Positions 4,067-57,627 of a stretch of DNA of 64,000 nucleotides are shown in pieces. Numbering within the stretch: the first letter of the stretch is position 1; each line of letters starts with the position of its first letter. The stretch comes from Cladosporium halotolerans. Lineage: Eukaryota. The DNA lies in NCBI RefSeq assembly GCF_011745625.1, contig NW_027191457.1, positions 930,001 to 994,000 of the forward strand, in the 5' to 3' direction. Made by a program: the position numbers and the translations under genes. Under the pieces are notes generated by a model. It made no database searches. It saw only the letters and a program-made list of their open reading frames with translations, and was not told the origin of the DNA.

Positions 4067-5329
4067 TCACGAGACACCACCTCTTGCCCCAGCACTGCTT
4101 TCCCCACCACACTCCATCTCATCAACCCTAACCAACGCCTCTCCTTTTCCGCCCTCCTCCCTCTCCCCCTCAACCTCATCCACATATCCATCCTCCACAT
4201 CCTCTTCCTCCCTCACGTTCACCGCCCTCCATCTCTCTACCCGCCTCCTCCAAGGCCCGTAGCACGCCCAAGCCACCAGCCCAAACACCACAAAAGCCCC
4301 ACAAACCGCCCCGCCAATAACATCATACGCATCGCCTGCCCTCTCCACACCCCTCCAAAACCCTCCCTCCAGATCCGGCCGCACCGCCAGCACCATCGTT
4401 AACAGCTGCAGCACGCCGATCGCCAGCGCGACGGCCACCGTCACCCCCGTCAGCACGGCCTGGTAGTACAGGACCGCGATCTCGTCGCTCGCCAGCCGCG
4501 CGGACGCGTACAGCGACATCATCGCCGCGCCGTCCGCCGTGTCGAGCATGCACATCGCGGCCGTGAAGAGTACGGGGAAGATCAGGATCAGCCAGATCGA
4601 GGTGCCGCGCGAGGCTTGGATACTGCTGAGGCCGAGGAGGGCGACTTCGGAGGACGTGTCGAAGCCGAGGCCGAAGAGCACGCCGAGCGGGTACATTTTC
4701 CAGGGGCGGTCGATGAGGTGGAAGAGCTTTTTGAGGAGCGAGGTCATGCAGCCGCCGGCGGGGAAGAGGGTGTTGGAGTCGGCTTGGTGGGAGGTGGGGG
4801 TTGGGGAGCGGATGGCGGTTTGCAGGGCGCGCAGGATCTTGTAGAGGATCCAGGCGTTCATGGCGCCGAGGATGATGAGGAAGGCGGAAGAGACGGAGGA
4901 GCCGATGATGCCGCCGATTGAGGAGAAGGAGTCGAAGCGGTCGCTGATGGCGGCGGAGCTGGCGGCGACGACGATGGAGGTTACGATGACGATCGTGCTG
5001 TGGCCGAGGGAGAAGAAGGTGCCAACTGTGACGGGGCGTTGGCCGGAGGCGACGAGGCGCCGGGTCATGAGGTCGATGGCGGAGATGTGGTCGGCGTCCA
5101 GTGCGTGGCGGAGCCCGAGAGTGTAGGCCAGGACGGCTGTTGAGACGAGTGAGGTGTGAAAGTGGAGGACGATGCCGCATGCGATCCAGACGAGGATATT
5201 GACGAATACTAGGAGGAGGACGATGGCAATCGCCGGCCCTGGCAGACGGCGAAGGTATGGGATCCGCTCATGACAGGCACTCGCTTTCTTTCGCATGCGG
5301 TGGACAATAGGTGGTTTCGTGTTTTCCAT
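4067..5329 (-). CDS. NIC1: High-affinity nickel permease (NiCoT/HoxN family), intronless
   Basis: NiCoT signatures GLRHALDADHISAID, FFSLGHSTIV and GVLFGLGFDTSSE, plus multiple TM segments. ATG at 5329 (the ORF track start is non-ATG). Confidence 0.93.
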   Translation of the reverse strand: MENTKPPIVHRMRKKASACHERIPYLRRLPGPAIAIVLLLVFVNILVWIACGIVLHFHTSLVSTAVLAYTLGLRHALDADHISAIDLMTRRLVASGQRPVTVGTFFSLGHSTIVIVTSIVVAASSAAISDRFDSFSSIGGIIGSSVSSAFLIILGAMNAWILYKILRALQTAIRSPTPTSHQADSNTLFPAGGCMTSLLKKLFHLIDRPWKMYPLGVLFGLGFDTSSEVALLGLSSIQASRGTSIWLILIFPVLFTAAMCMLDTADGAAMMSLYASARLASDEIAVLYYQAVLTGVTVAVALAIGVLQLLTMVLAVRPDLEGGFWRGVERAGDAYDVIGGAVCGAFVVFGLVAWACYGPWRRRVERWRAVNVREEEDVEDGYVDEVEGEREEGGKGEALVRVDEMECGGESSAGARGGVS

Positions 5330-5683
5330 GTTGATTTTGTGCCTCCCGCAAAGCAGCACCGGCTGGGCGTTACTTGAACTTCGTATCCGGTAAGATGGTG
5401 TACCAGCGATGGCCTTGGCCGCCAGGTCACGCCCCTCGCTACGCAATCTTCAGATCTTGTTGCTGCTCAAGAAAACCGGCGCCACTGAGGTGAGAAGACT
5501 GCTGCCGATAAAAGTAGAGCTCCCAGAGGGTGGGTCGCGATAGCGGTGCGGGGCACCAGCCGGCGAAAGTCAAACGGTGCTGTCATCATTCGGCGAAAAC
5601 AAAACGCCGACCAGGATCAACAAGCACATCATTTGACGAATAAGATGAATGCTTGTGTACGCGCCATGCGATGACTGTTCTTA

Positions 5684-7074
5684 TCAGTATTTGGCTACAC
5701 ATAAGCTGGCGTTCGTGCCGCCGAAGCCGAAGCTGTTGGTGAGCGCGACATTGACGGCGTGCTCCTGAGCCACTTTCGGCACATAGTTGCAGTTGAAGTA
5801 CTCTGAAGGGTCTCCGGGCTGGTCAAGGTTGAGTGTTGGTGGCATAATACCCTAGAAATTGTCAGTTGCTTCTTTGCTATATTGTCTAGGTTGACTTACA
5901 TCGCGAATGGCCAGGATGGTGAAGATGGCTTCGACAGCACCCGCTGCGCCTAAAAGATGGCCTACGGCACCCTTCGTGCTGCTGATATTAATGTCCGAAG
6001 CTTTCTGTTTGCCATTGCCTTCCAGCAGCAGACGCTTCACTGCTTTGTTTTCAGAAGCGTCGCCTAATGCTGTGGATGTCGCATGCGCGTTCACATAGTC
6101 TACATCACGCGGCTCAATCTGGGAATGTCTCAAGGCGCTTCGCATCGCCAAGTATGGTCCTTGTCCGTCTTCGCGTGGAGTCGTCATGTGGTGAGCGTCG
6201 GATGATAGACCGTACCCTTTCACTTCGGCATAGATATTGGCGCCACGGGCTTTGGCGTGCTCCAGCTCCTAAACGGCGTCAGTCAGCTCAGCATGGCAGA
6301 GGCCTCGAATAGGTTACTGACCTCGAGAATGACCACGCCAGCTCCCTCTCCGATCACGAATCCTGCTCTCTGTCGGTCGAACGGACGTGACGAAGATGTA
6401 GGATCATCGTTCCAATCTGTCGACAGACTCCTCGCCCTCGCAAATCCGGCGATAGCAAGCGGATGAATGCAAGACTCTGCACCACCCGCAACCATGACGT
6501 TCGCGTCTCCAAAGGCGATCATCCGCGAAGCATCGCCAATCGCATGCAGTCCCGTGGTACAGGCCGTAGTTGCCGCATGATTCGGGCCCTTGAAGCCATA
6601 ACGCATCGAGACGTGCCCAGCCGCCAGGTTGATGAGCAGCCGCGGCACAAACAGTGGGGATATCTTACGATAGCCGCCTCTGTCGAATGCAACGGAGGTG
6701 CTGTAAGCCTCGTCCAGATTACCTATTCCAGAACCCAGCGTGACACCCGTCATCTCCAGATCCTCGTCTTTAGTCGGGTGCCAGCCGGCGTCTTGAAGCG
6801 CCTCGTGTGCGGACGCAACTGCATACTGCGCGAAGAGGGCCATTTGCCGCTCTTCGCTGGCCGGCAGCCAGTCTTTTGCTTGCCAGCGGCCATCGTCGCG
6901 GCTACCTAGCGGAACGAGGCCTGCGACGCGGCTGGGGAGAGTTACGAATTGCGGCCCTCTGGTGATAGTCGAGACAATCCCGGACTGGGAGTCCAGGAGG
7001 CGTCGCCATGTTTGTTTGATGCCGGCTGCGAGCGGCGTCACTGCGCCCAGGCCGGTCACTACGACTCGTCGCAT
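5684..7074 (-). CDS. CEM1: Mitochondrial 3-oxoacyl-ACP synthase (KAS II type); introns 6269-6321 and 5852-5899; about 429 aa
   Basis: [10 protein letters not shown] start, TACTTG catalytic Cys, [21 protein letters not shown] and NSFGFGGTN. Both introns are canonical and keep the frame. Confidence 0.93.
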
Positions 7075-7543
7075 CGCATGCCAATTCTTTTCGGACTTTC
7101 GACTTAAATACAAAAGGAGAGATCGACCTGGCGGATTATGAGTGTTTTGAACGATTTCAAGATCCAAACAGATCGGCAGGCGACGAAGTTCGCGGAGTTG
7201 CGCCGGTTTTGCGGAGAGCTTCGCGTGCTTCGGCTCTCCAGCGCGTCTCGAGCGCGTCCACCCATCCATGGACCTTCCAACAACTCCGTTCGGTACACAG
7301 GACGTAAGTCTCAACATTGTTCAAAGATCATTTCATTCAAGTTCCCGTACTGATATCCCAAGGAATCCCGAAGACAAACGCCTCCGCCATCATGACAGAA
7401 ATTAAGAAGAAGGAAAAACGAAATGCCCCATGCCGTGCCCCAATCCTAACCCGAAGAGCCCCCCCAACCCATCCCATGTATACCAGAATCAAAAACGCCG
7501 CATAAACCAAAAGGAAAAAAGTCCGTTCATCACATGAAGTCGT

Positions 7544-10224
7544 TCATCCAAGCCATCCGTCATCAGCATCATCACCCCTCTTACCTCCAATATCAAGATT
7601 TAGCCGCGGCAGAGCCTCGACCGCAACCTCGCCCAGCTGCGGCGGCGCCTCTTTCTTCTTCCTGGGACTCTGGCTCCTGGCCCGCGCGGCCTGCTCTTCA
7701 ACCGCAGGACCCTCGCGCACGAACTTCGTGTCCCATCCGTCTTCCACCGCGGCGGCAGCCCACGCGCGCAGGCCGTCGTGCACGCCGGAGTAGAATTTCT
7801 CTTTGCAGGTGCGCAGGGTGTTGCCCATTGTTTTCTCGAAGCCGCTGGCTTTCAGCTCGTCGCGCAGGGTGTTGCGGGCGGGTGCTGAGGGCAGCGAGGC
7901 GATCAGGCCGTTGAGAAGGTCGAGGTTTGCGGTCAGGTATGTAGTCGCATCCCATTCTACGCCGCCGATGTAGGGCGCGGCGGGGACAGGAGGCCGTAGG
8001 CCAGGGAAATGGCGCTGGGTGTAAGTTGTTGCGAGCGATTTCTCGCGATCTGCAGAGCTCTCCGGGTTCTCGGCAGCTGCACCAGTTTCGGATCCGGCGC
8101 TATCAGGTCGTTTGGGTAGCGGAACGACATTGAGGTGGTGCAGGAAGATCCAGAAAACTTCTTTGGTGACATTTGTCACTTCCTGGCACCACAGCTTGTA
8201 TGGACGCGGAACCTGCATTCCCAAGACGAAGTCGACCGGTTTCTCGACCTCTGCTTTCTTAGGCTCGCCGAGGTAGGTGAGGATCTTGCGAGCTCGTTGC
8301 TCCAGCTCACCGGCGGACGAGTTGAGAGGAGCTGCAAGGTATGTGACTATACTGTTGTCAGTGGAAAAGCTAAATAACAAAATTGGAGGTACAACTTACA
8401 AAGGACGTTGGCAATGATCGTCCGAGTAGTGTACTCAGCTGGTCCCTTCTTTTCCTCATCAAACACCATTCCCAGCAAGGCCGGGAACAGCTCGTCCGCC
8501 ACTGTCGCCAGCTCCGCCAAGGCCCTCTCAGTCGTGCACAATCCCTTCAAACAAAGTAGCGTCTCGTGCAGAAGCTGGTCCTCGTGCTCTTCACGCCATT
8601 CAATTCCCATCAACCGGTGTAGTAGACCGACGACTTCAGTCATGCCACCTTGCGAGATGAATGTGTCGACCCATGCCACCGTCTCGTTGCGCAGAAGGAT
8701 ACGCAGCTTATGTAACCTGCCGACCTCCACCTTTGTCGGATCCTGATTCTTCCGCAGATAAGTGATGTATTCACTCGCAGCGGGAGTAGCGTGTCCGCGT
8801 CTTCCCCATGAGCTACCAGTGGGAGTAGTCGGCGCGCTGGAATCGCCCATCGAGCCTCCCTTCGGGATGTTGATCGCCATCGATTGCACCTTGCTCCTTG
8901 AACGAGGTTTCTTCGACGGCGAGCTATCACCGCTTCTCTTGTCGCCTTTTGAGAACGTAAAAGTCCGGCTCCTTGCTCTTGAACGCTTAGTCGACTTGCT
9001 ATCATCCTCTGCAAGCCGGTGCTGCTCCAGACTCTCCTGCGATCCCGCCGCTACTGGAGTTTCCATGGAAGATCTGTCGGCGTTCTTCGCACCCTGATCT
9101 TGCCTGACAAAGTCCGCCTTGACTCTCAGAGTCAGCGTCCTCATCCTCTCCCGCATGGGTTCAGGCACGTTCCTCGAGGCGAGCACAGCCTCGAACTCCG
9201 CATCCACGGTCTTCTGATCCAGTGCTGGCTCCTCTTTGGCCGGAGTGCCTTTAGCCTTACCCTGCAAAGCGGCCACGGCAGCCATCACTCTTGCGCCTCT
9301 TTTCGGAATGGTAAGCTTCTCTTTCGCAGCCGGCTGCTCCTCACTGCCTCCGCTGCAAGTCCGGTCGGAATGGCGGTGAGGCAGTGCCGGTCTATCCATA
9401 GCGGCACGACGAGCCTCCTCCCTACTAGGGCGGCGGGCGCTGTCGACAGATCTTCTTGAATCCATACTGGCTCGGGCACTGCTGATTTTACGGCTAAGAC
9501 CTCCGGCGAACCCGTCCGTCGGGACGATGACGGTGCTCTGCGGTCGACTTCTGATGGCAGGTCTGAGACTCGGGGCATCCGCGGTGTGTCCGTTGAAATT
9601 GCGCTGTTTGCTCGGCGAGTAGTCTCTCGGAGTGTACCTGGAGATCTCGTCCTGCACGCTGCTGTCCCGCTTGCTCTCTTGCGACCCACGAGAGACGTGG
9701 TTCTCTGTCGACGCGAATTGGGCCCAGATCGGGGTGTCCGCGGGCTCGACTGCTGAGATGGGAGGTGTGGTATTTTCCTTCTCGTAAGCCTGCGACTGCG
9801 GTGCGTAGGCGAGGTCGCGGGTCGAGCGATTCATCTTGCCGAACATGGCGGAGAGGCTTGTAGAGGACTTGCTCTTTTTGGGCTTGTCGTTTTCGTTCTT
9901 GTTCGGAGAGCGTGAGCCGTACTTGCCGGTCCCGTACAACTTGCTCGATCGCTTAGAAGGCGAGCTGGGCGGGGACTGCGCATTGAGATGCCGCTCGCCG
10001 AGGACTCGAGACGTCGAAGCATGCGGGTGGTCAGGTGGGAGGAGTGGGACGGTCTGCGTGTGGCTCCCGCCATGCATCATGTTGGTAGAGTTCGAGGGTG
10101 TCAGGTCAGGCGAAACCGGGCGGGACTTCGAAGACACGAGAGACTTGAGGAACTTGGAGCTCTTGTTCCGGCGGTGTTGGGGCCTGTCTGGAGTGGCAGC
10201 ATGATGTTCTTGAGGCGTCGTCAT
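7544..10224 (-). CDS. Formin GTPase-binding (Drf_GBD / armadillo-like) domain protein without FH1/FH2; intron 8347-8399; about 875 aa
   Basis: GBD-like segments VDAEFEAVL..RNVP..MRERMRTL..KADFV and LHKLRILLRNETVAWVDTFISQGG..LLHETLLCLKGLC. A GTAAGT...CTGAC...TAG intron joins ORFs 8347-10224 and 7544-8380. Confidence 0.8.
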
Positions 10225-10745: not shown

Positions 10746-11606
10746 ATGCCCGCACCTACAGCAGTCTTCAGCGCAGGCAAGAATGCCCTCATCACCGGCG
10801 CCGCTTCAGGCGTCGGCCTCGCAGTAGCAAAGCTATGCGCATCGCATGGCATGAATCTCCATCTGGTTGACAACAATGCCTCCCTCCTCGGCGAAGCCAA
10901 GTCAAAACTCACCGGAAAGGGCTCTCTTGAGACCCACGAAATGGATGTATCCTCTCTGAAAGATTGGAACAGCCTTCAATCGCAGCTGAAAGACACCAAG
11001 CTCGACTTCCTGCACCTCAACGCCGGCATTGGCGCCAAAGGCGACTGGACGGACTCGGCGTACTTTCACAAGATCTTCGACGTCAACTTCTACGGCGTCA
11101 TCAACGGTATCAACACCTTCTTCCCGCACTTCGAGGGCAACAGCTCCGACGCCAAGGCAATCGTCATTACGGGCTCGAAGCAGGGCATCACCAACCCACC
11201 CGGCAACCCGGCTTACAACGCTTCCAAGTCGGCGCTGAAGACCATCACCGAGCACCTGTCCTTCGACCTCGCCAAGTCCTCGCCGTCAACCAGCGTTCAC
11301 CTCCTGGTGCCGGGCTGGACGTTCACGGGCCTGACCGGCGGCGGCGGGACCAAGACGAAGCCCGACGGCGCCTGGTCCGCCGAGCAGGTTGCCGACCATC
11401 TGTACAAGAAGATGGACGAGGGCAAGTTCTACGTGATGTGCCCCGACAACGACGTCGATTGGGAGACGGACCGCAAGCGCATGATGTGGACCATGGGCGA
11501 CGTGGTGTACGAGCGTATGCCGCAGAGCCGGTGGAGGGAGGAGTACAATGATGAGGCTGCGAAGACTATGGATGGGATGAAGTTGGGTGCAAAGCAGGGG
11601 CAATGA
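10746..11606 (+). CDS. Short-chain dehydrogenase/reductase
   Basis: TGAASGVG cofactor motif, LNAG and catalytic YNASK; intronless. Confidence 0.9.
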   Translation: MPAPTAVFSAGKNALITGAASGVGLAVAKLCASHGMNLHLVDNNASLLGEAKSKLTGKGSLETHEMDVSSLKDWNSLQSQLKDTKLDFLHLNAGIGAKGDWTDSAYFHKIFDVNFYGVINGINTFFPHFEGNSSDAKAIVITGSKQGITNPPGNPAYNASKSALKTITEHLSFDLAKSSPSTSVHLLVPGWTFTGLTGGGGTKTKPDGAWSAEQVADHLYKKMDEGKFYVMCPDNDVDWETDRKRMMWTMGDVVYERMPQSRWREEYNDEAAKTMDGMKLGAKQGQ

Positions 11607-45479: not shown

Positions 45480-46256
45480 ATGAGGTGGGAAGTCTTTCTT
45501 TGCGTTGTTTAGAATGTTATAGTGTTGCATTTTGGGAAGGAGTTTGGGTTTGGTTGGGGTTGGAGTTCTGGGTTTGTAGTATTATGTTTGGACCTGTAGA
45601 ATTGTATCGTTTGTCTTTGTAGACGCTTCATCTGTGATCCTATCAATCGTGTTGATGTTGCAAGTGGGCAGCACACCACTCATCGTCAACAACGATGAAT
45701 CCAACCAACGCACGCCAACGAACCATATAGCATATCAAATTTACACTGGATTTCATGCAAAACCATCAAGAACGTCTTTCGCACGTCTGCGTAACCACAA
45801 CGGTCCCAAGAGACCAATGCGATCGTCTCGAAGAAAGTATGCAGTGGTTGCAAGGGTTAGGGTTGGGGCAAGCGGACAACCTCACTTGGGCGGACAGGCG
45901 TTAGCGGCGGAGTACCCGAGCCAATGAGCGTCGGGCTTGACGAACTAGGAAGGAACGGTTGTCACCCAGCACCATTGGACATGAGAAGGACACTGAGATA
46001 ATCATGTATTACGAGACGAACCAGCGTGACGTGCAACCTTGTTTTTTATTGGTTACAGCGCAGAAAATAGCTCAAGGCACTTCTTTGCAGTCGTTCTACG
46101 AACAAACGCTCAACAGTGATCCTCAGGCATCCAACGAATCAATTAAGCACAGATGCTCGAACCCGGCGCACACTTCCCGAACAAGACAAGCCCACGCGGA
46201 GCCGAAGCGTGCTGCGATCGCGTACAGACCTACCTAACGTTACCTAGCAGAAGCGC

Positions 46257-46298
46257 GCTCTGCTCTGCCCTGCTCTGCCCTGCCCTGCTCTGCTCTGC
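46257..46298. repeat. Pentanucleotide microsatellite (TGCYC)n
   Basis: gctctgctctgccctgctctgccctgccctgctctgctctgc. Confidence 0.9.
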
Positions 46299-47193
46299 TG
46301 CCATGCTGCCACCTGCTGCTCTGAACCTGAACGCCCCGGCCTAGCGCGGGCGCTGGGACCGCGAGTTCGAGGGCCGGCGAGGGCCTGGATCCCTCTGCAG
46401 AAATGCCGATCAGCGCTCGCGTGTCCACTTTCGCTGCGCGCGCGGGTCCTGGTGGGCCGGGAGGGTAGAGAGGGCCGTTGGATGGGCGGCTGGGATCATG
46501 CTTGCTTTGCGAAGGGCTGGTGGGTGATGTGATGGATGGGAGCTGGTGGGGGGCAGAGCAGAGCCGCATGTCGCGGTGGAGGTAAAAGGTGGAGGACAGG
46601 GGGTGTGGGAGGTGTTGCGATGCGCTATCATGCGATGCGGCTTTTTGCAGTAGCATGGAATCGCCTAAATGCACGCACGGCGGCATGTGTCTGCTGGATG
46701 AACGATGAGCCTGAAAGGCAAGCGGCCGGGTAGAAGCAGACTGGCAGAGCAGCAGGACGGGAGCTCACGAGCCACGCTGCTGTTCCCGCACACACTCGCC
46801 CTCCCGCCCGCGCAGCCGCGCGTGGAGTGCGTGAAGCTCGCGTGCGAGGGAGCTGGGTGGAAGGTACCTGAGGCAGTGTACCTATAGCGTTATCGAGTAT
46901 CCAGTCTGTAGGTGTGATGAATGGAATTGTTCGGGAGAGCACACAAGAGGCAGGCTGAGGCTCTGGCGCGGGCAGATTGGCTGAGACCTGCGGGCTGCCA
47001 CCTGCCAGTCGGCTCCCTTGTGCCAGCGCCAACCTGGCCGGGTTCGAGGTGACAGGCTGCGGGCTGCGGGCTGGGGGTTGGTGATTGGGCGGGGAGGGAT
47101 GGACGAAGCCACCTCATTTTAGCGCCCTGGCCACCTCTCCCGCGCCCGGCGCATGCTGGGGACTTGGATGAGGTGTTGCCTGCCTGAGGCGGA

Positions 47194-47235
47194 TGCTGGG
47201 TGCTGGGTGCTGAGTGCTGAGTGCTGGGTGCTGGC
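47194..47235. repeat. Heptamer tandem repeat (TGCTGRG) x6, last copy imperfect
   Basis: tgctggg tgctggg tgctgag tgctgag tgctggg tgctggc. Confidence 0.9.
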
Positions 47236-47947
47236 CGCTGCGCCCGTCCTGCTGTGTGCCCTGCCGCCGTGCCCTGGTGCTGCCGCTGGTGCTGCTAGAG
47301 ACTCTCCCACGCTCGCTCGCCGCGCGCCTCGCTGCGCCGTTGCCCGTCCCGTCGCCGCCGCCGCCCACGTCCAAGTCACGACGCTCTCCGCCGCGCCTCT
47401 GCCACAGCCAGCGAGCGCCTGCTGCCTCTCCGTCGCACTCCTGCGCCTCGTCAGCCATAAGCTACCTACCTTACCTCACGTACAAACACACGCGCCTGCC
47501 CGCCTCGCCCGCCTCGCCCGCGTCTCATCACGTGTCTCCCGCCCACGCGCTTGAAGGTTGCTCCCTCCGCGCTGCAGCCAGCGCCAGCAGACGGAGCTTC
47601 GTCGCGCCTGGCAGCTGGGCCGAGCAAGCGCGACCGCGGCCGCAGACCCCAGCCGAGCAACGTCAAGAGCTCCCGTCGCTCGACCACACATCACAACTCA
47701 CACCACCCTCCACGCCCCGAACCCCCCGCCGCGCCTCGACACCGCTCCGCTGGGCATCCGCTCCGCCTGCACGCCTGCGCCGACGCCCTCCCGCTCGTTG
47801 CGTCGTTGCGCCCGCCCACCGACGCCCGCCCGTCGCTGTCGGCCCTTCTCCGCATCTCGCTGTTCCTGCTTTCTGCTCGCCGTCCAACCTTGCGCGCGAC
47901 TCTCCCAGACACCCACCTGTCCCCGCGTGGACATATCAACTCGCCAA

Positions 47948-49975
47948 ATGAGTACCCAGGCCCCCCCTCCGGCGGTCGGAGGACAAGAAGCAGGTATGCG
48001 TGATCACCACCTTGCGCACGAGCCAATCCTCGGAGCTGAGCGAGAAGCGCTCCCCTTCCGAGATCGCGAACCTCTACTGACACGTTCCACCCAGGCTCCC
48101 TTAACCCTTCGCAAGCACAATCTTCGATCGCCGCGCCTGCCCAGCCACCTGCTGCAGTCGCCGCAGCCCAGGCTGCCGAATCGAGTCGAAACGCTGAGGT
48201 CCCCGGCGCCGGTCCTTCAGCCCAGCCGAGTCTTGGTGTCCCTGGACAAGAGAGTAGCGCGACCGGACTGAGTGGAGTCACCGCGAATGACACCTCTGAA
48301 AATGTGGAGACGGGTTCGAAGCGAAGCCTTACCGGCCGACGAAGAGGCGCGAGCACTGGTAGCAAGCGTTCGAACCGCCAGCTGGGAGGAGATGGCGAGA
48401 AGCAGAGGCCTGGCTCCAGTGGGAGAACACAAGCTGGTTCTGAACCCAGACCCAAGAAAAGAGGCGGACTTTTAGCATTCCTTACTTGCTGCGGTGGCTC
48501 TAGCGAAAACCAAGAGCCGGGCTCCAGAGAGTCTGCTCAGCCCGCAAAACTCCCCACGACAGCGTCGCAGCCGACAAGGGCGAGGCAGAACCAACAACAC
48601 CAAGAGATTCAGCCGCCAAATGCCAGCGCAACCAACACCAGTGCCGATGGGTCCAAGGAGGTCATTGATGAGAAGGCTGGCCAGCAGCCGAAACACAATG
48701 GACACCCGACCGCCGCACCGATCTTGCCGACGCCTCCAGCGGATTCGGAAAGGCACCCCCAAGCTGTGGTGCAGCCTGAAAACCCAGTCCCCAGCATCCC
48801 ACCCGGCCTCAATTCAGTTCAACCCAACCCTGAAGTCCAACCACTCACTAGAGAACGACAAGATCTCCAGCCTGAGGCACCCACGACTGGTCCTCCTCAC
48901 ATTGACACAACACAAAGGACCGTCGCACACGATGCAAAACCCAATCACTCAAACAACCCACAGATCGGCGTAATTGCACCCACACCTATCGTTTCGCAGC
49001 AAGAAGAAGAAGAAGTTGAGGATGATATAATTCAGGACCGAACCCCCGAGCAAGCCGCACGAGACACGGATATTGAAATGTCTGATTCTGGACCCTCAAT
49101 ACCGCTAGGACCCAACGATGTACCGCAAAACCCTGAAGTTGAGACCACGACGCGTGAGCGACGAGGTTCATCAAGTTCGTCGAGCCGGATAGATCTCCCA
49201 CCTCCGCCACCTTTGGCCGAGCGACAAATACAACATCAGCACGGTGATACCGCTGTCGCTGGTGGTGCTGTCGCTGGGACTGGTGTCCTTGCTGCCGGAG
49301 CGGGTTTTGCGGCACAAGAAAGCGGTCATGACCTTAGCGCAGTGTCAACTCCCGAGCAAACTCAAAAGTGGCTGCTTCCGCCCATACAACCCCAGTTCAG
49401 TGGCAAGAAATGCTTAGTCCTGGATCTGGATGAGACGCTGGTCCACAGCAGCTTCAAGGTACGGTTACCCTCATATTCTCGTTCCCAGATCCCATGCTAA
49501 CGTCGCTTGATAGATCCTCCACCAGGCTGACTTTACTATCCCGGTCGAAATCGAAGGCCAGTACCATAATGTCTATGTCATCAAGCGCCCCGGTGTTGAC
49601 GCCTTCCTCAAACGGGTTGGCGAGATTTACGAAGTCGTCGTGTTCACCGCCTCTGTATCCAAGTACGGCGACCCTCTTCTCGACCAACTCGACATCTCCG
49701 GCTCTGTACACCACCGTCTTTTCCGCGAATCATGCTACAACCACCAAGGAAACTACGTCAAAGATCTCAGCCAAGTCGGCCGACCGCTCGGCGAGACAAT
49801 CATTATTGACAACTCCCCTACATCCTACATCTTCCACCCGCAGCACGCTGTCCCGATCTCTTCTTGGTTCTCCGACGCCCACGACAACGAGCTTCTGGAT
49901 CTAATCCCCGTGCTGGAAGACCTCGCTACCGCCGACGTCCGGGACGTCAGCCTGGTGCTGGACGTGGCGCTGTAG
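47948..49975 (+). CDS. PSR1: HAD-family CTD small phosphatase Psr1/Psr2; introns 47994-48094 and 49459-49513
   Basis: [17 protein letters not shown] (DxDxT), KRPGVD, FTAS and [10 protein letters not shown]. Splicing exon 1 (MSTQAPPP...) puts it in frame with ORF 48304. Confidence 0.92.
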
Positions 49976-50135
49976 GATTTCGCCGCGAGCTGCCAGCGAC
50001 GCGTGCAATAACAACAACAGTTAACGGGTTGACGAGAGGTGTTTACAGGAAAAGGGCCATCAAAGTATCAACAACCATCACCACCAAAAGGAAACGAATC
50101 ATTTTTGTCTTTACAACAATCAGTACTGTCAGTCA

Positions 50136-50538: not shown

Positions 50539-50937
50539 CGTCTTCGCCTTCCTTCTCATTCTTCTTTTCTTGTCATTGTCATCATGTACAGAGTATCTAA
50601 CCCTGTGTCACCTCTTCGCTTATTAGCCATATCGTGAGAGAATGGGAATACTACGTGGGTTTTATTGTATCGATTTTGTGGAATTTCTGCTGTGTTTCGT
50701 GTCTTGTAACTTGTGACGGTGATTTTGTGGCGGATGCAGGGATATGGAAATTTGAGCTTCGGTTTGGATTCCGTGCTGTTTTGTGAGGATGTGTTCTCAT
50801 CGCTCATGAGAGGTGAGGGAACGCGTTGAATGAGAGGTAAGATACAATGCTGGGCCGACGCTTCTGTTGTCATTACCTATTCAATACCCTCCTTTTGCGT
50901 ATATTGTCTATCGTACACGCTCACCCTCTCACACAAC

Positions 50938-52542
50938 CTACCCCCTCTGCGCCCTATACCCCCTCTCCTCCGCCCACCTCTTCTCCACCAACTCCGCCAC
51001 CTCCCTCCCGTAAACCTCCTCCGGCTCCTCGTCCCCCTTCAGCACCCTCCTCTCATGCGCCAGCATCTCATCCTTCGTAACACAAACCAGCTCGTCCAAC
51101 CCCACCCTCACAGCCTTCTGCCCCTCCGTCCGCGTATCCACCCACTCCCCCCTCGGCTTCCGCCACCTCACCAGCGCCAACCTACTCGTCAGCCCGCTGA
51201 TCGCGCTCCTGCCCCGCCACACCTCGTCAACAAGATACCCCACGTCCTCCGCATTGACCGGGATCCGCAAGCCCGTCGCGTCGAAGCCAGGAATCAAACT
51301 GCGCGCCAGCCTCTCTTCCAGCCCCTGCAGCTGCGCCAGGATCCCGTCGTACATCTTCTCCCGCCCCTTGGAGGAGATGTACTCCCCGTGCCCTGGGTAG
51401 GACGCCAGAGACAGCATGACGTGGTTCGCGGCGCAGAGCCCGAAGACGGCGGGCATGGTTCCCAGGACCGGCAGGATGCGCGCGCGGAAGGACGGCAGGA
51501 TGCCGAGTTCGCTGGCGCTGCCGGAAGCGTACTGCTCTTCGGGCAGCGGGAGGAGCTGCGCTTTGCCCGGCGCGGTTTTTTCGCTGCTGTAGATGACGGG
51601 GATGCCGGCTTTGACGCCTTGCAGGCGCAGGCGGCGCCGCGTCGAGCGCGACAGCGGGTCGTCGGTCGAGGCGCTGATGTCGCCGACGAAGACGCGCGTG
51701 GGGTCCGATTTGCAGCCGGCGCCCATGGAGGAGATCACCGGGAGGGAATGCGAGTGGCAGTAGGCTAGGAGGGCGACTTTGCTGTCGATGTTGTCGATTG
51801 CGTCGATGACGAAGGAGGGGGTTTGCGCCGGGGAGGACGAGGAGGAGGGCCAGGGACCCAGGAGGGTGGAGGAGGCTTCGGCGGAGTACAGCTGGTTGAC
51901 GGCGTCGAAGTGCGTCCAGGGCACGATCTGCTCGAGGCGGCGCTGCAGGCAGGCGACTTTGGGCGTGCCGACGTCCGCGAGCGTGGCGACCGCGTGCCGG
52001 TTGAGGGAGGAGAGGGTCACTTGGTCGAAGTCGATGAGGCGGATTTTGCCGCAGCCTGAGCGTGCGAGGGCCGCTGCTGCGTGCGAGCCGACGCCGCCGC
52101 AGCCGACGATGATCACGAAGGCGTTGCGCAGGGCGTGCAGGCCTTCGTCGGTGAGGAAGACGCGGTTGCGCGCGAGTTGTTCGAGGATCAGCGCTTCGTC
52201 GTAGTCGCCTAGGCGCGCGCGGCGGGCGAGCGCGATGCCGCGTTCGTCTTCTTTGCTGAGGGTTGAGGAGTCTTCTGTGCGTGGTGCTGCGCCGCCGAAG
52301 TCGTTGATCTGGGATGGTGTTAGTGATCATTGATCGATTGATGTGTCTGGGGTGCGAAGTTCAAGTACCTTTTCGACATCATGCTTCGAGCTCGCATCTG
52401 GTATCGATCCTTTCAGATCGTGTATACTGTACCATTTCTTCGCATTCTGCAGCCCTATCACGGCGCTGGCGGCGAGGGCGCCAGATACCACGGCCGTCAG
52501 GCCCAAAGAGAGCCTAGGCGAGTCCTGTATCCATGATGACAT
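50938..52542 (-). CDS. TCD2: tRNA threonylcarbamoyladenosine dehydratase (Tcd1/Tcd2, ThiF/E1-like); intron 52309-52368
   Basis: N-terminal TM anchor; LILEQLARNRVFL, IVGCGGVGS, IDFDQVTLSSLNRH, DAIDNIDSK, SSMGAG and ILPVLGTMPAVFG. Confidence 0.88.
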
Positions 52543-52907: not shown

Positions 52908-53929
52908 ATGCTCCTTTCCTTGCAGCGGGGTCTCTCCTTGCTGCTGGCAGCATGGGTGTCCTTCGCGTACGCACAAGAGTCCGACGTTAAGTCGATTCCT
53001 TTGCGCACTCATAGTTTGGCTCAGGTTGGTTTATTAGAATGCTATGGACATGCAATGCCAGGGAACGGATCGCTAACCCATTTGCACAGCCCTACCTCGA
53101 CTCCGACCTTCAATCGCGATGGTTCGATTTCGGCGGCAGCACAGTAATCCGCGCCGACCAATACATTCGCCTGACCGGCTCCCACCCCTCCGAGGCAGGA
53201 TGGCTCTACTCGCGTGTCCCGCTCACCGCGACGAACTGGGAGGTAGAATTCGAGTTCAAGATCCACGGTTCTGGAACACTGTTCGGTGATGGCATGGCGA
53301 TGTGGGTGACGAAATCGCGCGCGGAGGAAGGTCCTGTGTTCGGCATGCGCGACGAGTTCGAGGGCCTCGGCATCTTCTTCGACACCTACAAGAACAACCG
53401 ACCCGGCGTCGTCTTCCCATACGTCATGGCGATGGTCGGCGACGGCAAGACCAAGTACGACCAGGGCAACGACGGCAAGGCCAACGAGCTCGCGGGCTGC
53501 TCCGCACGCGGCATGCGCAACGCCGACTTCCCCACCCGCGCCAAGGTCACCTACTTCCAGGACAAGGAGCTGACCATGGACTTGATGTACAAGAACGAAG
53601 ACGAGTGGACGCGCTGCTTCCAGATCCCGGACATCAAGCTGCCCTCCGTCTCCTACCTCGGCTTCAGCGCCGAGACCGGCGAGCTCAGCGACAAGCACGA
53701 CATCATCAGCATCGACACCAAGAACCTCTACTCGCCCTCCGGCCAGACCAGCACCGGCTCCGCGGCGAAGAAGGACTACAACCGCAACAAGTACCGCGGC
53801 ACCACGCCGCCCAAGGAGAGCGGCGGCTGGTTCTGGTTCTTCATGAAGTTCATCATCTTCGGCCTGTCGGTCACTGGTGCTTATGTTGGTTTCACCATTT
53901 ACCGTAGCCGGAGGAGGGACAGATTCTAG
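52908..53929 (+). CDS. Legume-like (L-type) lectin cargo receptor, VIP36/Emp46-47 family; intron 53025-53089
   Basis: Signal peptide; FGDGMAMW, GLGIFFDTYKN and YLGFSAETGELSDKHDI; C-terminal TM with a short RRRDRF tail. Confidence 0.9.
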
Positions 53930-55419
53930 ATGTCGTGTTTGTCAAAAAGCGGTCATGACGGAAACCCATTTGCTTGAGCGTATTTTCGTATTTGTTCAAT
54001 AAGAATCCACCAAAATCTAAAGTACTCTTCTCCGTGACTTTACACCAGGTGATGGTATTGACTGGATGTGTCAATTGCTTGACCTAGCCAAACACTCGCT
54101 GAGCGAACATGCTGGGGGCACTCGAGTTCCAGCTGTCTCGTGAAATGATACTTGACGATTAGCGATATACTGAAAAGATGCTCCCGTGCAAGATGTCTGT
54201 CTCTGATTCGATCTGACGATAGCTCCGAAAGTTGAAATCATCAAGGTCAAGGCACCCTGGCTGTTTCAAGCGCTGGCGGAGAGCTGATCCAGGTCACAAG
54301 CTTTCGGCCCGTTCCCGTGACGTGCATACCCGAGAACGCGCCAGGCTGGTATCAAGAGCTACTTTCGTACCACCTGCTTCCAACTTCACTCACACACGCG
54401 AATGGCGAGCAGAAGCAGCACGGTAGGTCAACACAAACTCCATGCCCAGGTTGTCACGAGGAGTCGCTCACTGACCATCACCTCAGTCCAAACCGATGAA
54501 GGAAACAAGTCACGAGCTAACAGGACCCGATCTCGCCTGCGCGTAGCCGCTGCATGGGTAGTTCCTCGCCGTCGTTTGCGACGGCAACATGCGGCTACGC
54601 AAAGGCGCAGACAGTGGCTGACCTTGAACAGATGTCCTACGGTACTATGGACGTCGCTTGCTCTTCTCGATCGCCGCGTGTGGCGACGTCAGCTTCGGAC
54701 TCTCTTCAATCTGGCTTTCCGGCCTCTTCACTTCCACGTCTGGCATTTCTGCACAGCAGACCGAGCGGCCTGCCAAACGAAGCGTGTCAGCACTATGGCG
54801 CGCTCAGGACGAGAAAGTAATGCACCTAGTGGGCTGGCTCTTGTTTTTCAAGGGTGAGCTCGCGAAGACGACCCAAAAAAGATAGTTTTCAATCGGAGCA
54901 GCGCGCTTGCTCCGCTTTGCGAGGCTGGTCGGTCGGACTGTGAGGACTGCAGGTGTGAGGCGCTGGGCGTTTGGGAGCCGGCGAGTCTGAAGCGAGGGAG
55001 AGGAAGAAGGTGTCCGTCATCTTATCTTGTCCGGTGATGATCAACTGTATCAAAAGTCAAAGTTGTAGGCAGCCGGCGGGCGGGCTCCTTCGTCACTGGA
55101 GGGGTTGCGCGGTCTGGTTGTCGTTGAGAACGTAAGAGAGCTAATCTGAGGACACATTCTTGACGGACACCTTGGAGGGTATGTAGCATTTCCGTAGGCG
55201 CGTAGCCGATCATACTTGAAAAATCACCACTGTCACTCTGAAACTGCGCAAATATTTGATATGCAATAAAATCTTCATTGCGACTACCTACCTGGCTATC
55301 CACGACCACAAACCTTCTCACTGACCTCACCATAAAGCAAGCCTGTTCTTTTACCGATCACAAAGCTCCTGATCCGCTGCCCAACACTCAACATCATCCT
55401 TCGCCACCTCTCCATGCCC

Positions 55420-56610
55420 TCAAAAAGTAGCCACCCTCCTATCCCTCATGACCCTACACCTCTGCCCACACCTCGCATGCCCACAAATCAGCCGCGAGCA
55501 CACAGCCTGCTCCACGATCGTCTCGCTGTCGCACCGGCAGCACGTCCACCGCTTGCACCAATTCCACGGGACGTCCGGGCGCGAACTGCCGCTGAGCGGC
55601 GACGCCCATACAAGGCCTGGCAGGAGATGGGCGTTGATCGGCGGCGGCAGGACTTTGATCGGGTTGAGAAAGCGGTGTGGTTGGGCGCGCTGCTTGTCGC
55701 GCGAGAGGAGAGGGTGCTCGGTTGGGGCGTCGGAGTCGGAGCTGGAGCTGGAGTCGTTGCTGTCGCTGATGCTGCTGGTAGATCTTGGGCGGGTCAGGCG
55801 GTTGCGGCGAGGCGAGGGTTGAGATCCGGCGGTGGGCGTTGCGCGGGGGATTTTGGGGCGGGTCGGGGTTGGTGGGTCGGGGGTTTTCTTTTTGAGGGTG
55901 GCCCGGGTGCGTGGCGTGATGCTCGGGGAATCTGTTGTTGCTTCCGCTTTCGAAGGAGAGTTGGATTTGGTCTTGCTGGGCACGTCGACGGGCTCAGTGT
56001 TCTCGCTCACGGCCGAGTCGCTGCGCTGCTCTCTTCTTGACTGTGAGCGGGTGGTCCGTGGCTGGTGGAGGGCGTCGCCGGCGTCAGGCTCGAAGATTGC
56101 TGAGCGAGGTGGGTCTGCGCTCCTGCTGCGCTGGTGTGCTGTCTTCGATGGCTGAGTCGAGTGGATCATTTCGAAGTCGACCCCTTCCACGGTGCGAATG
56201 GTGGGTTTGATTGGCGGTGGCGGAGCATCTTCTTTCTTCGCTTCAGCAGGCGGAGCGATATCCTGGCTGCTCTCGAAAACTTCCGTAAAGGCAGCGATCT
56301 TGTTACGCGATCTCAGTGACCTCTCGTCAGGGTTTGACATGGTGGCTGCGTTGGCCGCAGGAGCTCGGCGCTTGTAACGGTCTAAGAGAGACTTCGAAGG
56401 CGAGCGGCGAGTAAGTTGATCGGGCTTCGGCGCTGTGAGGTACACAGGGGGTGGTGGCGTGGGAGTGAGGTCTTCTTTGCTGGTCTTGCCGGACAAGTGA
56501 AGATGTTCAAGAGCCGCGACGAGCGGCGAGGATGCGTCGTGCGCTTCGGTATTCGGGTTCTTGTCACTCAGTGAATGCTTGCCGATGCGCTTTCTGAGCG
56601 ACGGTGCCAT
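55420..56610 (-). CDS. Hypothetical Ser/Pro-rich protein with C-terminal Cys/His cluster
   Basis: 396-codon ORF from ATG 56610, ending WNWCKRWTCCRC-x9-C-x4-CGHARCGQRC. Confidence 0.7.
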   Translation of the reverse strand: MAPSLRKRIGKHSLSDKNPNTEAHDASSPLVAALEHLHLSGKTSKEDLTPTPPPPVYLTAPKPDQLTRRSPSKSLLDRYKRRAPAANAATMSNPDERSLRSRNKIAAFTEVFESSQDIAPPAEAKKEDAPPPPIKPTIRTVEGVDFEMIHSTQPSKTAHQRSRSADPPRSAIFEPDAGDALHQPRTTRSQSRREQRSDSAVSENTEPVDVPSKTKSNSPSKAEATTDSPSITPRTRATLKKKTPDPPTPTRPKIPRATPTAGSQPSPRRNRLTRPRSTSSISDSNDSSSSSDSDAPTEHPLLSRDKQRAQPHRFLNPIKVLPPPINAHLLPGLVWASPLSGSSRPDVPWNWCKRWTCCRCDSETIVEQAVCSRLICGHARCGQRCRVMRDRRVATF

Positions 56611-57042
56611 GTTGACTAAAACGGTTGGTGACCTGTAGGGGATGCCTGACGATGCTCGTGACAGAGAATGCTGAATCAGTGGCTGCGGCTGAGGCAATGT
56701 GAATTTTTCAAAGACTCGGTAAGAGTGAGGTGAGAAAGTAGTGCAGAAGAGCGAGCTTTAAGGTTCCAAGGTTCCCACTCAAGCGCGGGCGGGTAGTGAG
56801 GTGAGGTTCGCGCGATGTGTGCAGTGACTGCGCGCGACTTTCACGTGATAGGAACCGCCAGCAACGAGCTGGAGCTTTCTCGCGATCGAACCATCTCGAG
56901 CACGAGGGTCAGCGCGCGGGGGCATGCTTAAAGATTTGCATTGTGTCATGGAGAAAAGAAGGGTATCTCGTTGGGTGGATTATACTTTGGATATTACACT
57001 TCTTACTCCGCCAACTGGACGAACCGGAGCCCTGGTATTCAT

Positions 57043-57627
57043 CTACGCCGACAGCATCTTGAATCCGCTCCAGCCGACCATGCCATAAAGACCGATCTGG
57101 AACAGCCAGAAGGGAGCACCAACGAGTCTGCCCTTGCCGTCGTCCCTGTCCGCGCGAGTGTATCCAATGGCGTACGCGATCCTCGACAGAATCCAACCAA
57201 CACCCATAATGCTCGACGCGACCGGGTACCTCAGACCAGCCACCAGCAGCGCAGGGATGAAAGACGGAGCGTTCTCGAGGAAGTTTCCGTGGGCTCTCTG
57301 GGCGCAGTTGAACAGGTACATCTTCTTCTTCTGCTCGGGGGTAGCAGCGCTCATGTCGCTGTTCTCGGCGTACTGCTTGGGGTACATGATGCCCGAGGGC
57401 TTGCGGAAGACTCCGACGCGGCCTGCGTGCCAGAAGCCAACCTGGTGTGGATTATTAGACCTTGGTTCGTGCGGGAGATCAGTCGTGGGATAGGTCATAC
57501 GAAGAAGGTGCTGGCGGCAGTGAGGAGGACATAGCTGTGAGGATTGTCAGTTGCCGAATGACTGGAAGTGAGATGCTTCGAATTTGACGTACCCATACTC
57601 CTGGGGAACGGAGATGTTGACAGACAT
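57043..57627 (-). CDS. MGST3: MAPEG family microsomal glutathione S-transferase 3; introns 57535-57592 and 57442-57500
   Basis: Spliced start MSVNISVPQEYGYVLL; FNCAQRAHGNFLEN and RIAYAIGY..GR motifs. Confidence 0.9.

Follow-up and report, generated by a model that had tools for sequence, protein, structure and literature searches.

A C/A-to-G/T strand polarity at the 3' ends of Cladosporium halotolerans genes as a strong case of fungal gene-end skew reversal

The GC-rich islands within which the + strand of a Cladosporium halotolerans contig turns from C/A-rich to G/T-rich are a sharp, unusually strong case of the gene-end skew reversal already in print for fungi, as the available sections of that report describe it (McLean and Tirosh, 2011; PMC3315797). 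The islands probably represent the 3'-proximal part of a polarity carried by each gene rather than free-standing hotspots. Given that the skew is seen at fourfold-degenerate sites, in 3'UTRs and in an intron, a strand-asymmetric process of mutation, repair or fixation is its likeliest type of cause.

Experimental procedures

The window, that is, the whole stretch of DNA analysed, comprises 64,000 nt of the forward strand of Cladosporium halotolerans (GCF_011745625.1, contig NW_027191457.1, positions 930,001–994,000). Raw contrast was calculated as (G+T)-(A+C) in the 300 nt to the right of a point versus the 300 nt to its left, and 50 shuffles inside 2-kb blocks, with a window-wide maximum of 0.197, served as the null. 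The silent-site null consisted of 500 synonymous-codon shuffles per ORF, with 60 codons taken on each side, in 21 ORFs; the ORFs with the centres at 11400 and 53800 were unscorable in this way, their turns being too close to the ORF end to leave 60 codons beyond them. Fourfold-site composition of the arms was pooled over 11 islands, the positions of turns were tested within ORFs of at least 300 aa, and the first and last codons were compared at fourfold sites in every ORF of the window with 250 aa or more. Two further gene sets were taken from metagenome contigs of filamentous ascomycetes, namely 73 distinct orthologues of the ThiF-family gene (54–81% identity) and 74 other, unrelated long ORFs from the same contigs.

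Results

Reality and extent of the turns

An earlier note on this DNA had listed 16 turn centres, and the pattern is real: nine of them (4500, 7770, 19590, 21050, 27150, 42880, 45100, 51450 and 55600; contrasts 0.20–0.38) lie above the maximum of all 50 local shuffles, the other seven (11400, 12300, 17400, 22900, 30150, 53800 and 57300) having contrasts of 0.12–0.19. Raw contrast also revealed a strong turn at 46347 that was absent from the list, and the window holds 10 strong turns in its 64 kb. The centres at 12300, 30150 and 57300 are weak and were not matched to any gene end. The same note had proposed two checks, at fourfold-degenerate sites and against synonymous-codon-shuffled sequence, and the switch survives both. 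The composition of the pooled arms is given below; in the shuffles, p was at most 0.002 in six of the 21 ORFs (turns at 4540, 7729, 19613, 43014, 51345 and 55614) and 0.016–0.026 in three further ones (17396, 21013 and 26084), the remaining 12, including those with the centres 22900 (p 0.08) and 27150 (p 0.07), being non-significant. GC3 reaches 0.90–1.00 in the island cores, and nine of the 10 turns measured have GC-rich stretches 0.5–1.4 kb wide, the tenth, at 46347, being 2.2 kb wide. The islands and one reverse turn are as follows.

4138..5218, - strand: NicO nickel-transporter island (ORF 4067–5449; Pfam NicO); turn ~4540, 470 nt upstream of the stop; contrast 0.30; codon-shuffle p=0.000; C3 reaching 0.90 upstream and G3 0.77 downstream of the turn, where GC3 is 1.00
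7330..8077, - strand: 3' end of ORF 7544–8395; turn 7640–7730; contrast 0.24; p=0.000; 3'UTR (7330–7544) C/A-rich on the + strand, with a coding-strand keto skew of +0.42 and +0.36 in the first 200 nt past the stop
10977..11606, + strand: 3' part of a short-chain dehydrogenase gene; GC3 0.83–0.97; raw contrast weak (0.15); G3 turn only in the last 30 codons (last bin C3 0.07, G3 0.63)
16910..17988, + strand: 3' end of a DDT/WSD-domain gene (stop 17638); turn about 17350–17400; p=0.026; GC3 0.83–0.97; raw contrast only 0.12; transcript contig ends at 17988
18544..19950, + strand: GT90 glycosyltransferase island (stop 19798); turn 19584; contrast 0.32; p=0.000; G/T-rich arm reaching about 150 nt into the 3'UTR
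20499..21700, - strand: island of an unnamed gene; turn about 21050; contrast 0.33; p=0.016
22660..23300, - strand: weak island at the 3' end of a pseudouridine synthase gene; contrast 0.12; p=0.08; clear C-rich, GC3-rich arm (GC3 0.83–0.97), G-rich arm barely formed
26730..27800, - strand: 3' end of a CLC chloride-channel gene; turn 26950–27150; contrast 0.20; p=0.07; C3 up to 0.77, then G3 0.47–0.63 with C3 0.06–0.10
42501..43500, + strand: internal midasin island; turn about 42960, 2.5 kb ahead of the stop; contrast 0.22; p=0.000; the sole island away from a gene end
44410..45600, + strand: terminal midasin island (stop 45479); turn 45200–45370; contrast 0.23; GC3 0.93–1.00; 3'UTR (45480–45600) G/T-rich, keto skew +0.60
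45700..47113, - strand: island of a short gene; turn 46347; contrast 0.24; GC 0.68
47113..48000, no strand: reverse turn (G/T to C/A) at 47291, flanked by the 5' ends of two divergent genes, each C-rich on its own coding strand; contrast -0.22; GC 0.73; the GC-richest stretch of the window (peak GC 0.76)
50927..52326, - strand: ThiF-family (tRNA t6A dehydratase) island, spanning the whole gene; turn about 51370, 430 nt ahead of the stop; contrast 0.22; p=0.002; skew -0.88 to +1.00; GC3 0.8–0.93
53375..53950, + strand: 3' end of an L-type lectin gene (stop 53929); turn about 53820, 80–110 nt ahead of the stop; contrast 0.19; GC3 0.93–1.00; change of codon endings visible in the sequence itself
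55270..56220, - strand: 3' end of an unnamed gene (ORF 55420–56757); turn 55617; contrast 0.38; p=0.000; 3'UTR keto skew +0.32 and +0.26

Silent-site and non-coding composition

Fourfold sites of the upstream arms consist of C.58, G.24, A.10 and T.07 (n=751), those of the downstream arms of G.56, C.19, T.18 and A.07 (n=523), and those of the background of C.31, T.29, G.21 and A.19 (n=2787). Twofold sites behave likewise, with C/T counts of 209/16 upstream versus 93/79 downstream and G/A counts of 107/68 versus 185/18. The flip extends to A and T, with A/T counts at fourfold sites of 78/55 upstream versus 38/94 downstream (odds ratio 3.5, p 1e-6). At the same turn points, the contrast at codon positions 1+2 is mostly small and, accordingly, amino-acid composition does not explain the switch. 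The GT90 gene, for which a change of codon endings around 19570 had been claimed, bears this claim out in its counts before and after that position (CTC 21/1, GAC 10/1, AGG 0/5; GAA 7/0 versus GAG 3/10; GCC 12/1 versus GCG 1/9).

The skew is also found in non-coding sequence. Two flanks singled out previously have the composition ascribed to them, 7330–7530 being C/A-rich (A.37, C.31, G.15, T.16) and 45480–45600 being G/T-rich (G.36, T.42, C.06, A.17). In the first 100 nt past the stop, the 3'UTRs of four of the 13 genes examined show a keto skew of +0.3 to +0.6, which, in the genes with such a 3'UTR, fades by 200–300 nt. An intron inside a C-rich arm (21341–21396) has C 0.59 and G 0.07, and the composition of seven introns outside the islands is near neutral. 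Runs of at least three G number 151 in the arms versus 190 +- 9 expected from same-arm shuffles, indicating that G is spread site by site, unlike in clustered hybrid-forming terminators. Selection for RNA fold-back, previously mentioned as an alternative, is rejected, and RNA folding shows no excess.

Association with gene ends

The view that most centres lie in the 3' part of genes holds: 17 of the 25 turns in long ORFs fall in the last third (p 4e-4), at a median of 206–257 nt from the stop, and there is about one turn per gene. The reverse turns lie in spacers with a GC content of 0.45–0.56 or, at 47291, between diverging 5' ends. Since reverse-complementing a C/A-to-G/T turn gives the same turn again, genes on either strand produce the same + strand picture, and every gene with a C-rich body and a G-rich 3' end thus yields one island. 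On its own coding strand, the gene body is C-rich with A over T, the silent sites are nearly pure G+C across roughly the last kilobase of the gene, and the G-rich, T-over-A end occupies the last 80–600 nt of the coding region and about 100–200 nt of the 3'UTR. Fourfold sites show C.38 and G.24 in the first 100 codons, and C.22 and G.41 in the last 60. About 12–13 of the roughly 20 genes in the window carry the feature; in the NIF phosphatase, TFIIE, unk2356 and LOR genes the G-rich end is slight or absent, and in convergent gene pairs a strong island is often present in one partner only. In the 14.7-kb midasin gene, the first 11 kb are flat, and the antisense ORFs at its internal island matched no Pfam family.

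The polarity in other ascomycetes

Among the ThiF orthologues, 66 of 72 have more C than G at the fourfold sites of their first 150 codons, and 52 of 65 have more G than C in their last 82. The turn point ranges from codon 51 to codon 434 and therefore keeps no fixed distance from a terminator. Of the 74 unrelated ORFs, 61 have a higher skew in the last 60 than in the first 100 codons (p 1.7e-9), with a weaker A/T flip in the same direction as in the window (p 6e-4). Across other ascomycete contigs, GC-rich C/A-to-G/T turns again contrast with GC-poor reverse turns (50 versus 20, p 2e-8, with some near-duplicate loci included). Divergence between strains is mosaic, ranging from 0.06% to 4% across neighbouring segments, which shows that these lineages recombine.

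Discussion

The strand-asymmetric process put forward in the earlier note is supported in its general form, whereas the specifics that it favoured, meiotic hotspots and replication origins, find no support. The turns are not independent but occur about once per gene, with reverse turns between genes, and the same polarity from 5' C to 3' G in many ascomycetes argues for a process anchored to the gene instead of meiotic hotspots specific to a lineage; the termination-linked alternative in the same note is nearer the mark. A mutation or repair pressure that is unequal on the two strands and linked to the transcription unit might act on every type of site and change its sign between the zone of elongation and that of termination, possibly through a switch in the strand that is exposed or repaired, or through antisense initiation at the 3' end of the gene. 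Its main effect would be that the coding strand loses T upstream and A downstream, changes that would also raise G+C where the two zones overlap.

Two other explanations fare poorly in the window. That the turns are an artefact of protein composition or ordinary codon preference is very improbable: three poorly conserved genes do shift at positions 1+2 (K12 contrast +0.33 to +0.50), but synonymous shuffles are beaten in six of 21 ORFs at p of at most 0.002, the effect peaks at fourfold sites and extends to 3'UTRs and an intron, and the G/T-ending codons of the 3' arms take the place of the C-ending ones favoured by the background genes of the window. Bacterial origins and human skew domains are C/A-rich to the left and G/T-rich to the right, and turn points acting as replication origins, with a G/T-rich leading strand on each side, would match this polarity. 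Origins are, however, spaced by tens of kilobases and skew domains span many kilobases. With 10 strong turns in 64 kb, arms of 0.1–0.9 kb, amplitudes of +-0.4 that are far above replication skews, and all strong turns inside coding regions and tied to gene ends, we reject replication initiation sites as scarcely credible.

The internal midasin island, 2.5 kb inside its gene, is a difficulty for a per-gene polarity, and the restriction of both arms and of the GC3 rise to ~1 kb in long genes would be accounted for more simply by a process that spreads from a point. We give only a small chance to the islands being footprints of a process that begins at one point and proceeds from it in both directions. 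Candidates for such a point would be a site of breakage and repair and a bidirectional transcription start in the 3' part of the gene, with A:T driven to G:C on the strand running away from it. If so, the published gene-end skew would be the blurred genome-wide average of discrete sites, and the turn points could be read from the genome as a map of these sites.

Focal recombination, in which the turn marks a site of repeated meiotic or mitotic breakage within the 3' part of a gene, is unlikely, although it deserves some weight. Repair near the break would favour G:C, unequally on the two strands, so that the outward strand turns G/T-rich, whether the cause is G.T mismatches carried by the invading 3' tail or errors in repair strands synthesised away from the break. 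Consistent with this, GC3 peaks at 0.93–1.00 at or near the turn and declines on both sides, long genes have local arms, midasin contains an internal island, GC-rich turns contrast with GC-poor reverse turns elsewhere as well (50 versus 20), strain divergence is mosaic, and the polarity would fit newly made repair strands together with repair of T.G heteroduplexes; damage to single-stranded 3' tails, by contrast, would yield the opposite polarity. The related Zymoseptoria has LD hotspots inside exons, but its GC-biased conversion is weak or absent, according to the available part of the study (PMC5844332). Furthermore, the turns are tied to gene 3' ends at about one per gene, the G skew of several genes climbs up to the stop rather than fading outward, and the polarity recurs in nearly all relatives, in unrelated genes and, as far as its accessible sections go, in the fungal survey (PMC3315797).

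An adaptive origin, whereby silent and untranslated sites are selected for the behaviour of the transcript or of transcription, strikes us as improbable. In a tightly packed genome, avoidance of C at the 3' end might pace RNA polymerase, or a G-rich non-template strand might aid termination through RNA-DNA hybrids; C-avoidance is in print as one of two hypotheses in the sections at hand of McLean and Tirosh (PMC3315797), and G-skewed 3' ends of human genes have been tied to termination (Ginno et al., 2013, as cited in the available part of PMC4911931). The anchoring to genes, the widely conserved direction and the end of the G/T arm about 100–200 nt past the stop, roughly at the expected transcript end, would all suit such selection. 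Yet G runs are fewer than in shuffles (151 versus 190), RNA folding is not in excess, about a third of genes lack the feature, the turn point drifts widely between orthologues, and a GC3 of 1.00 over hundreds of bases would require selection at almost every silent site. We retain the transcription-unit-linked mutation or repair pressure as the preferred reading.

Gene-end skew reversal in fungi was published in 2011, no cause for it has yet been generally accepted, and only four other papers in the literature searched contain the phrase 'opposite GC skews'. To this the window adds near-saturated GC3, the A/T flip and the internal midasin island. With GC3 of 1.0, C3 or G3 of 0.9 and turns seen gene by gene, it makes a good test bed, offering individually visible turn points instead of weak averages for comparison with maps of RNA, hybrids, recombination and mutation. 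The islands distort statistics of codon usage, GC3 and selection, and need to be taken into account when genes are predicted and GC-biased gene conversion is tested for in these fungi.

Comparison with known systems

The closest precedent is the survey of McLean and Tirosh (2011, BMC Genomics 12:638; PMC3315797), the available sections of which describe fungal genes whose GC skew has opposite signs at the 5' and the 3' end, with data that include Aspergillus, Fusarium, Neurospora, Pyrenophora and Stagonospora. The bias is seen there at fourfold sites, shifts amino-acid use and affects many genes, though not every one; GC skew falls as GC content rises, and A/T skew is flat along genes. As in these sections, the window has a C-biased 5' part and body and a G-biased 3' end at fourfold sites, the bias reaches the 3'UTR and is common to many genes and related species, and GC skew is negatively tied to GC content (rho -0.14). 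By contrast, the effect in the window is locally far stronger (C3 or G3 reaching 0.9 and GC3 reaching 1.0), is confined to about 1 kb in long genes, includes an A/T flip and has one island internal to a 14.7-kb gene. The same sections deal with genome-wide averages and do not mention GC-rich islands, antisense transcription or recombination. A 2005 study, in the part available (PMC555766), reports a C-rich coding strand near gene starts, which parallels the C-richness of the diverging 5' ends around 47291 and of the first 100 codons; however, the strongest C-rich arms of the window immediately precede the 3' turn, at distances from any gene start that reach 12 kb.

Human genes whose 3' ends carry a GC skew connected with termination and RNA-DNA hybrids (Ginno et al., 2013, as cited in the available part of PMC4911931) resemble the window in the G-rich non-template strand at gene 3' ends and in the gene-dense surroundings, but G is unclustered in the window and a mirror-image C-rich arm lies upstream; for hybrid-prone regions of budding yeast, the same part reports no GC-skew pattern (PMC4911931). 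Finally, yeast GC3 peaks, attributed in the accessible portion of the source to GC-biased gene conversion at recombination hotspots (PMC2997560), and the exonic LD hotspots of Zymoseptoria (PMC5844332) recall the ~1 kb silent-site G+C peaks inside genes of the window. Nevertheless, GC-biased gene conversion as described in these portions is strand-symmetric, whereas the peak in the window has a C half and a G half and is tied to the gene end.

A recurrent strand switch at silent sites

The forward strand of the window repeatedly passes from C/A-rich to G/T-rich sequence. These turns lie in GC-rich islands with a C/A-rich arm upstream and a G/T-rich arm downstream, and the earlier note had named 16 such centres. 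For each position, G+T minus A+C was computed in the 300 nt on its right and in the 300 nt on its left, and the contrast was set against 50 shuffles within 2-kb blocks, in which the largest value was 0.197. Nine of the 16 centres (4500, 7770, 19590, 21050, 27150, 42880, 45100, 51450 and 55600) exceeded it, bearing out the recurrence of the switch, and the remaining seven had contrasts of 0.12–0.19; the same scan returned a strong turn at 46347 that was absent from the original list.

The switch had also been said to affect synonymous sites, and this claim held under a refuting test that the earlier note itself had set, in which synonymous codons were shuffled 500 times in each of 21 ORFs and 60 codons were scored on each side of the turn. 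The third-position switch was beaten in at most one of the 500 shuffles in six ORFs (turns at 4540, 7729, 19613, 43014, 51345 and 55614), and three further ORFs gave p values of 0.016–0.026; the other 12 of the 21 were non-significant in this test, including two with turns too near the ORF end for 60-codon scoring. At the third-position switch points, the contrast at codon positions 1 and 2 was mostly near zero. The effect is present at fourfold degenerate sites, as tabulated below, and our recount of codons in the GT90 glycosyltransferase gene and of two non-coding flanks agrees with the earlier one.

Table. Composition of silent sites in the island arms
Fourfold sites, upstream arm (11 islands pooled, n = 751): C.58, G.24, A.10, T.07
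Fourfold sites, downstream arm (11 islands pooled, n = 523): G.56, C.19, T.18, A.07
Fourfold sites, background (n = 2787): C.31, T.29, G.21, A.19
Twofold pyrimidine sites, C/T: upstream arm 209/16, downstream arm 93/79
Twofold purine sites, G/A: upstream arm 107/68, downstream arm 185/18

In the island cores, GC content at third positions (GC3) is 0.90–1.00, with third-position C (C3) of up to 0.9 upstream and third-position G (G3) of up to 0.9 downstream, and A and T flip between the arms together with C and G (odds ratio 3.5, p = 1e-6). The skew extends 100–200 nt past the stop codon, in 3′UTRs; one intron within a C-rich arm has C.59 and G.07, and seven introns away from the islands are near neutral. 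No class of weakly constrained sites escapes the pressure. Upstream, it is mainly T that is lost from the coding strand and downstream mainly A, so that where the two zones overlap both bases are gone and GC3 reaches 1.0. CpG depletion was not found in the island cores (observed/expected 1.0–1.3), and both G-run or quadruplex-like clustering in the G arms and C-run clustering in the C arms were under the shuffle level.

Turns are anchored to the 3′ parts of genes

The fungal DNA of the window is compact, its G+C content is 55.8%, and its long ORFs encode ordinary eukaryotic domains recognized by Pfam.

Table. Long ORFs of the window by Pfam domain
NicO transporter, minus strand
Ketoacyl synthase
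GT90 glycosyltransferase, plus strand
DDT/WSD protein, plus strand
Pseudouridine synthase
TFIIE-alpha
CLC channel, minus strand
Midasin, plus strand, two ORFs, 30783-37997 and 38031-45479
NIF phosphatase
ThiF-family enzyme (tRNA t6A dehydratase type), minus strand, 50927..52326
L-type lectin, plus strand
P4-ATPase

The ThiF-family ORF has 97% identity to an unnamed protein and 82% to its top named match, from Cladosporium fusiforme, with identities of about 70–73% to other Dothideomycetes. The midasin frame is interrupted once, at 37997-38031, between ORFs of 2404 and 2482 codons; the break is presumably a short intron, the rest of the 14.7-kb gene being intron-free. Contigs of X11, a sequence run (labelled 'DNA?') of a related strain, omit six GT..AG stretches of 48–99 nt on the plus strand within 14295-15611 and, at 24271-24334, a single CT..AC stretch of 62 nt. 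Spliced transcripts would show such gaps, which place six introns in the DDT-domain gene, all in its 5′ part and none in its last 2 kb, and a seventh in the pseudouridine synthase gene. Two stretches of lower GC content (0.41–0.50), 11700-14200 and 56800-60500, in which ORFs are short or none reaches 150 codons, probably hold multi-intron genes; the weak centres at 12300 and 57300 fall within them, with no gene end matched to either.

Genes on both strands pass from C3-rich to G3-rich in their own 5′-to-3′ sense, with the turn 80–600 nt ahead of the stop codon. Such runs are found on the minus strand in the NicO gene, the 7544 ORF, the 20499 gene, the CLC and ThiF genes and the 55420 gene, and on the plus strand in the SDR, DDT, GT90, midasin and lectin genes. 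A C/A-to-G/T stretch is its own reverse complement and, consequently, a C-early, G-late gene looks alike on the plus strand in either orientation. Among ORFs of at least 300 aa, six of the eight turns in the window lie in the last third, two in the middle third and none in the first, and the corresponding counts for 17 turns on other fungal contigs are 11, five and one. Combined, 17 of 25 turns fall in the last third of the ORF versus 8.3 expected (p = 4e-4), at a median distance of 206–257 nt from the stop codon.

Reverse turns, from G/T to C/A, lie in GC-poorer spacers (4037, 7233, 26690, 45671, 50914 and 55206), and one more, at 47291, separates two divergent genes whose 5′ ends are C-rich. 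Since turns fall in the 3′ parts of genes and reverse turns in spacers, the islands, approximately 15 over 53 kb, correspond to roughly one for each gene and do not form a set of independent points. The 5′ parts of the diverging pair are covered by the GC-richest stretch of the window, 46187-48387 (peak of 0.76 in 200 nt); each gene is C-rich on its own coding strand, and several ORFs overlap there in different frames, so that the gene models are tentative.

In long genes, both arms and the rise in GC3 are limited to about the last kilobase, and the first 11 kb of midasin are flat. A second midasin island lies 2.5 kb inside the gene, and no nested or antisense gene visible to Pfam was found under the midasin islands, none of the three long ORFs checked having a family. 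About one-third of the genes, among them those for NIF phosphatase and TFIIE and those designated unk2356 and LOR, have no clear G-rich end. Judged by eye on few genes, convergent or tandem orientation of the neighbours gives no clear rule for the islands.

The pattern in relatives and related strains

The same polarity was found in a sample of 80 metagenome loci with a ThiF-family orthologue (54–81% protein identity; 73 distinct orthologues). At fourfold sites, 66 of 72 orthologues have more C than G over their first 150 codons and 52 of 65 have more G than C over their last 82, with the best change point at a median of codon 377 of 462 (range 51 to 434). In 74 other long ORFs on the metagenome contigs, the first 100 codons have a fourfold composition of C.335, G.19, A.247 and T.228, and the last 60 one of C.22, G.319, A.208 and T.253. 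Toward the end the skew increases in 61 of the 74 (p = 1.7e-9), with a small shift in A and T that follows the window in its direction (p = 6e-4). An annotation-free scan of these contigs, which counts a few near-duplicate loci twice, placed strong C/A-to-G/T turns in locally GC-rich DNA (+5.7 points, n = 50), whereas the DNA around reverse turns was GC-poor (−3.8 points, n = 20; for the difference from forward turns, p = 2e-8). By the method of the 74-ORF comparison, the values for the window are C.43 and G.325 over codons −160 to −60, against C.22 and G.41 over the last 60. The window shows the general pattern strongly. In its four nearest relatives (78–81%), the islands are weaker and the turn lies 50–90 codons further downstream. 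The pressure is anchored to genes and conserved in direction, with a variable position of the sign change. In three pairs of related metagenome contigs, from lineages with weak islands, there was no positive relation of divergence to skew or GC (rho for skew −0.02 to −0.28).

Assembled contigs of four related strains were also compared with the window over 14001-28600, and their divergence is a mosaic that would confound a comparison of islands with gene bodies by segment: X11 has one difference in 22601-24271 and 78 in 16044-17988; a second run, X4, has 64 in 19616-21360 and 49 in 22996-28600; and X4 and a third run, X5, diverge by 3.7–4.1% over 18779-21424 and by 0.8–0.9% over 21362-28600. 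This mosaic suggests recombination or introgression among lineages of this species group. X4 and X5 have several assembly breaks at or near islands (19616, 21360, 22795-23172). Short GC-rich words at 19553-19599, 22976-23030 and 26200-26241 match other related-strain contigs at depths of up to 350–500, and are probably low-complexity coding motifs common to many genes.

Possible causes

Amino-acid and ordinary codon-preference effects are ruled out as the source of the switch by the synonymous shuffles, the fourfold composition and the skew in 3′UTRs and an intron. We consider it rather probable that the islands, taken as instances of a published fungal pattern (discussed below), arise from a strand-asymmetric mutation or repair process coupled to the transcription unit, the sign of which would switch from the elongation zone to the termination zone. 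The strand-asymmetric process proposed in the earlier note is likely, but its free-standing meiotic or replication hotspots fit poorly with turns that are gene-anchored and number about one per gene. Initiation of replication, in particular, is contradicted by the density of the turns, the length of the arms and their position.

The main rival, a focal break-and-repair process in the 3′ parts of genes, would accommodate the local extent of the arms, the peak of GC3 where the strand turns and the internal midasin island, and the polarity would be that expected of repair synthesis or of T.G heteroduplex repair on an invading tail. We nevertheless regard it as unlikely, given that the turns are anchored to gene ends, that the G skew is still climbing up to the stop codon and that the same polarity recurs across a wide fungal survey, as described in the available text of PMC3315797. 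An adaptive cause, whereby the islands would pace or terminate RNA polymerase, appears quite improbable: hybrid-forming terminators would need clusters of G, whereas G is unclustered (151 runs versus 190 expected), and the one island folded, that of GT90, does no better than shuffles. Selection for RNA fold-back of the arms, also raised in the earlier note, is rejected on the folding of the GT90 island (751 nt), with a z-score of +0.56 and 16 of 20 shuffles folding at least as well; a search for inverted repeats between the arms of four islands gave no more than two short pairs, of 15 and 20 nt, which look like chance matches.

Comparison with known patterns

In the literature on strand asymmetry at recombination hotspots or on GC3 and skew gradients along fungal genes, we did not find split C/G islands described. 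According to the available text of McLean & Tirosh (2011; PMC3315797), almost all the fungi examined show a coding-strand bias toward C at the 5′ end and toward G at the 3′ end, and the species set includes Aspergillus, Fusarium, Neurospora, Pyrenophora and Stagonospora; this skew affects fourfold sites and amino-acid use and correlates weakly with expression, and GC content and GC skew are negatively related. The same text offers two hypotheses, namely, mutational regimes differing by transcription phase or avoidance of C at transcript 3′ ends, and a term search found no occurrence of either antisense transcription or recombination in PMC3315797. In budding yeast, hybrid-prone regions are described without a GC-skew pattern in the consulted part of PMC4911931.

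The islands very likely represent the pattern of McLean & Tirosh (2011), from which the window nevertheless differs in several respects. About one-third of its genes lack a clear G-rich end, midasin has a second, internal island, and in long genes the arms and the GC3 rise are restricted to approximately the last kilobase. Furthermore, A and T flip in the window, whereas A/T skew is flat in the available text of PMC3315797, and the switch is locally stronger, with silent sites almost saturated. As an instance of a known fungal pattern, the window is new and exceptionally sharp.
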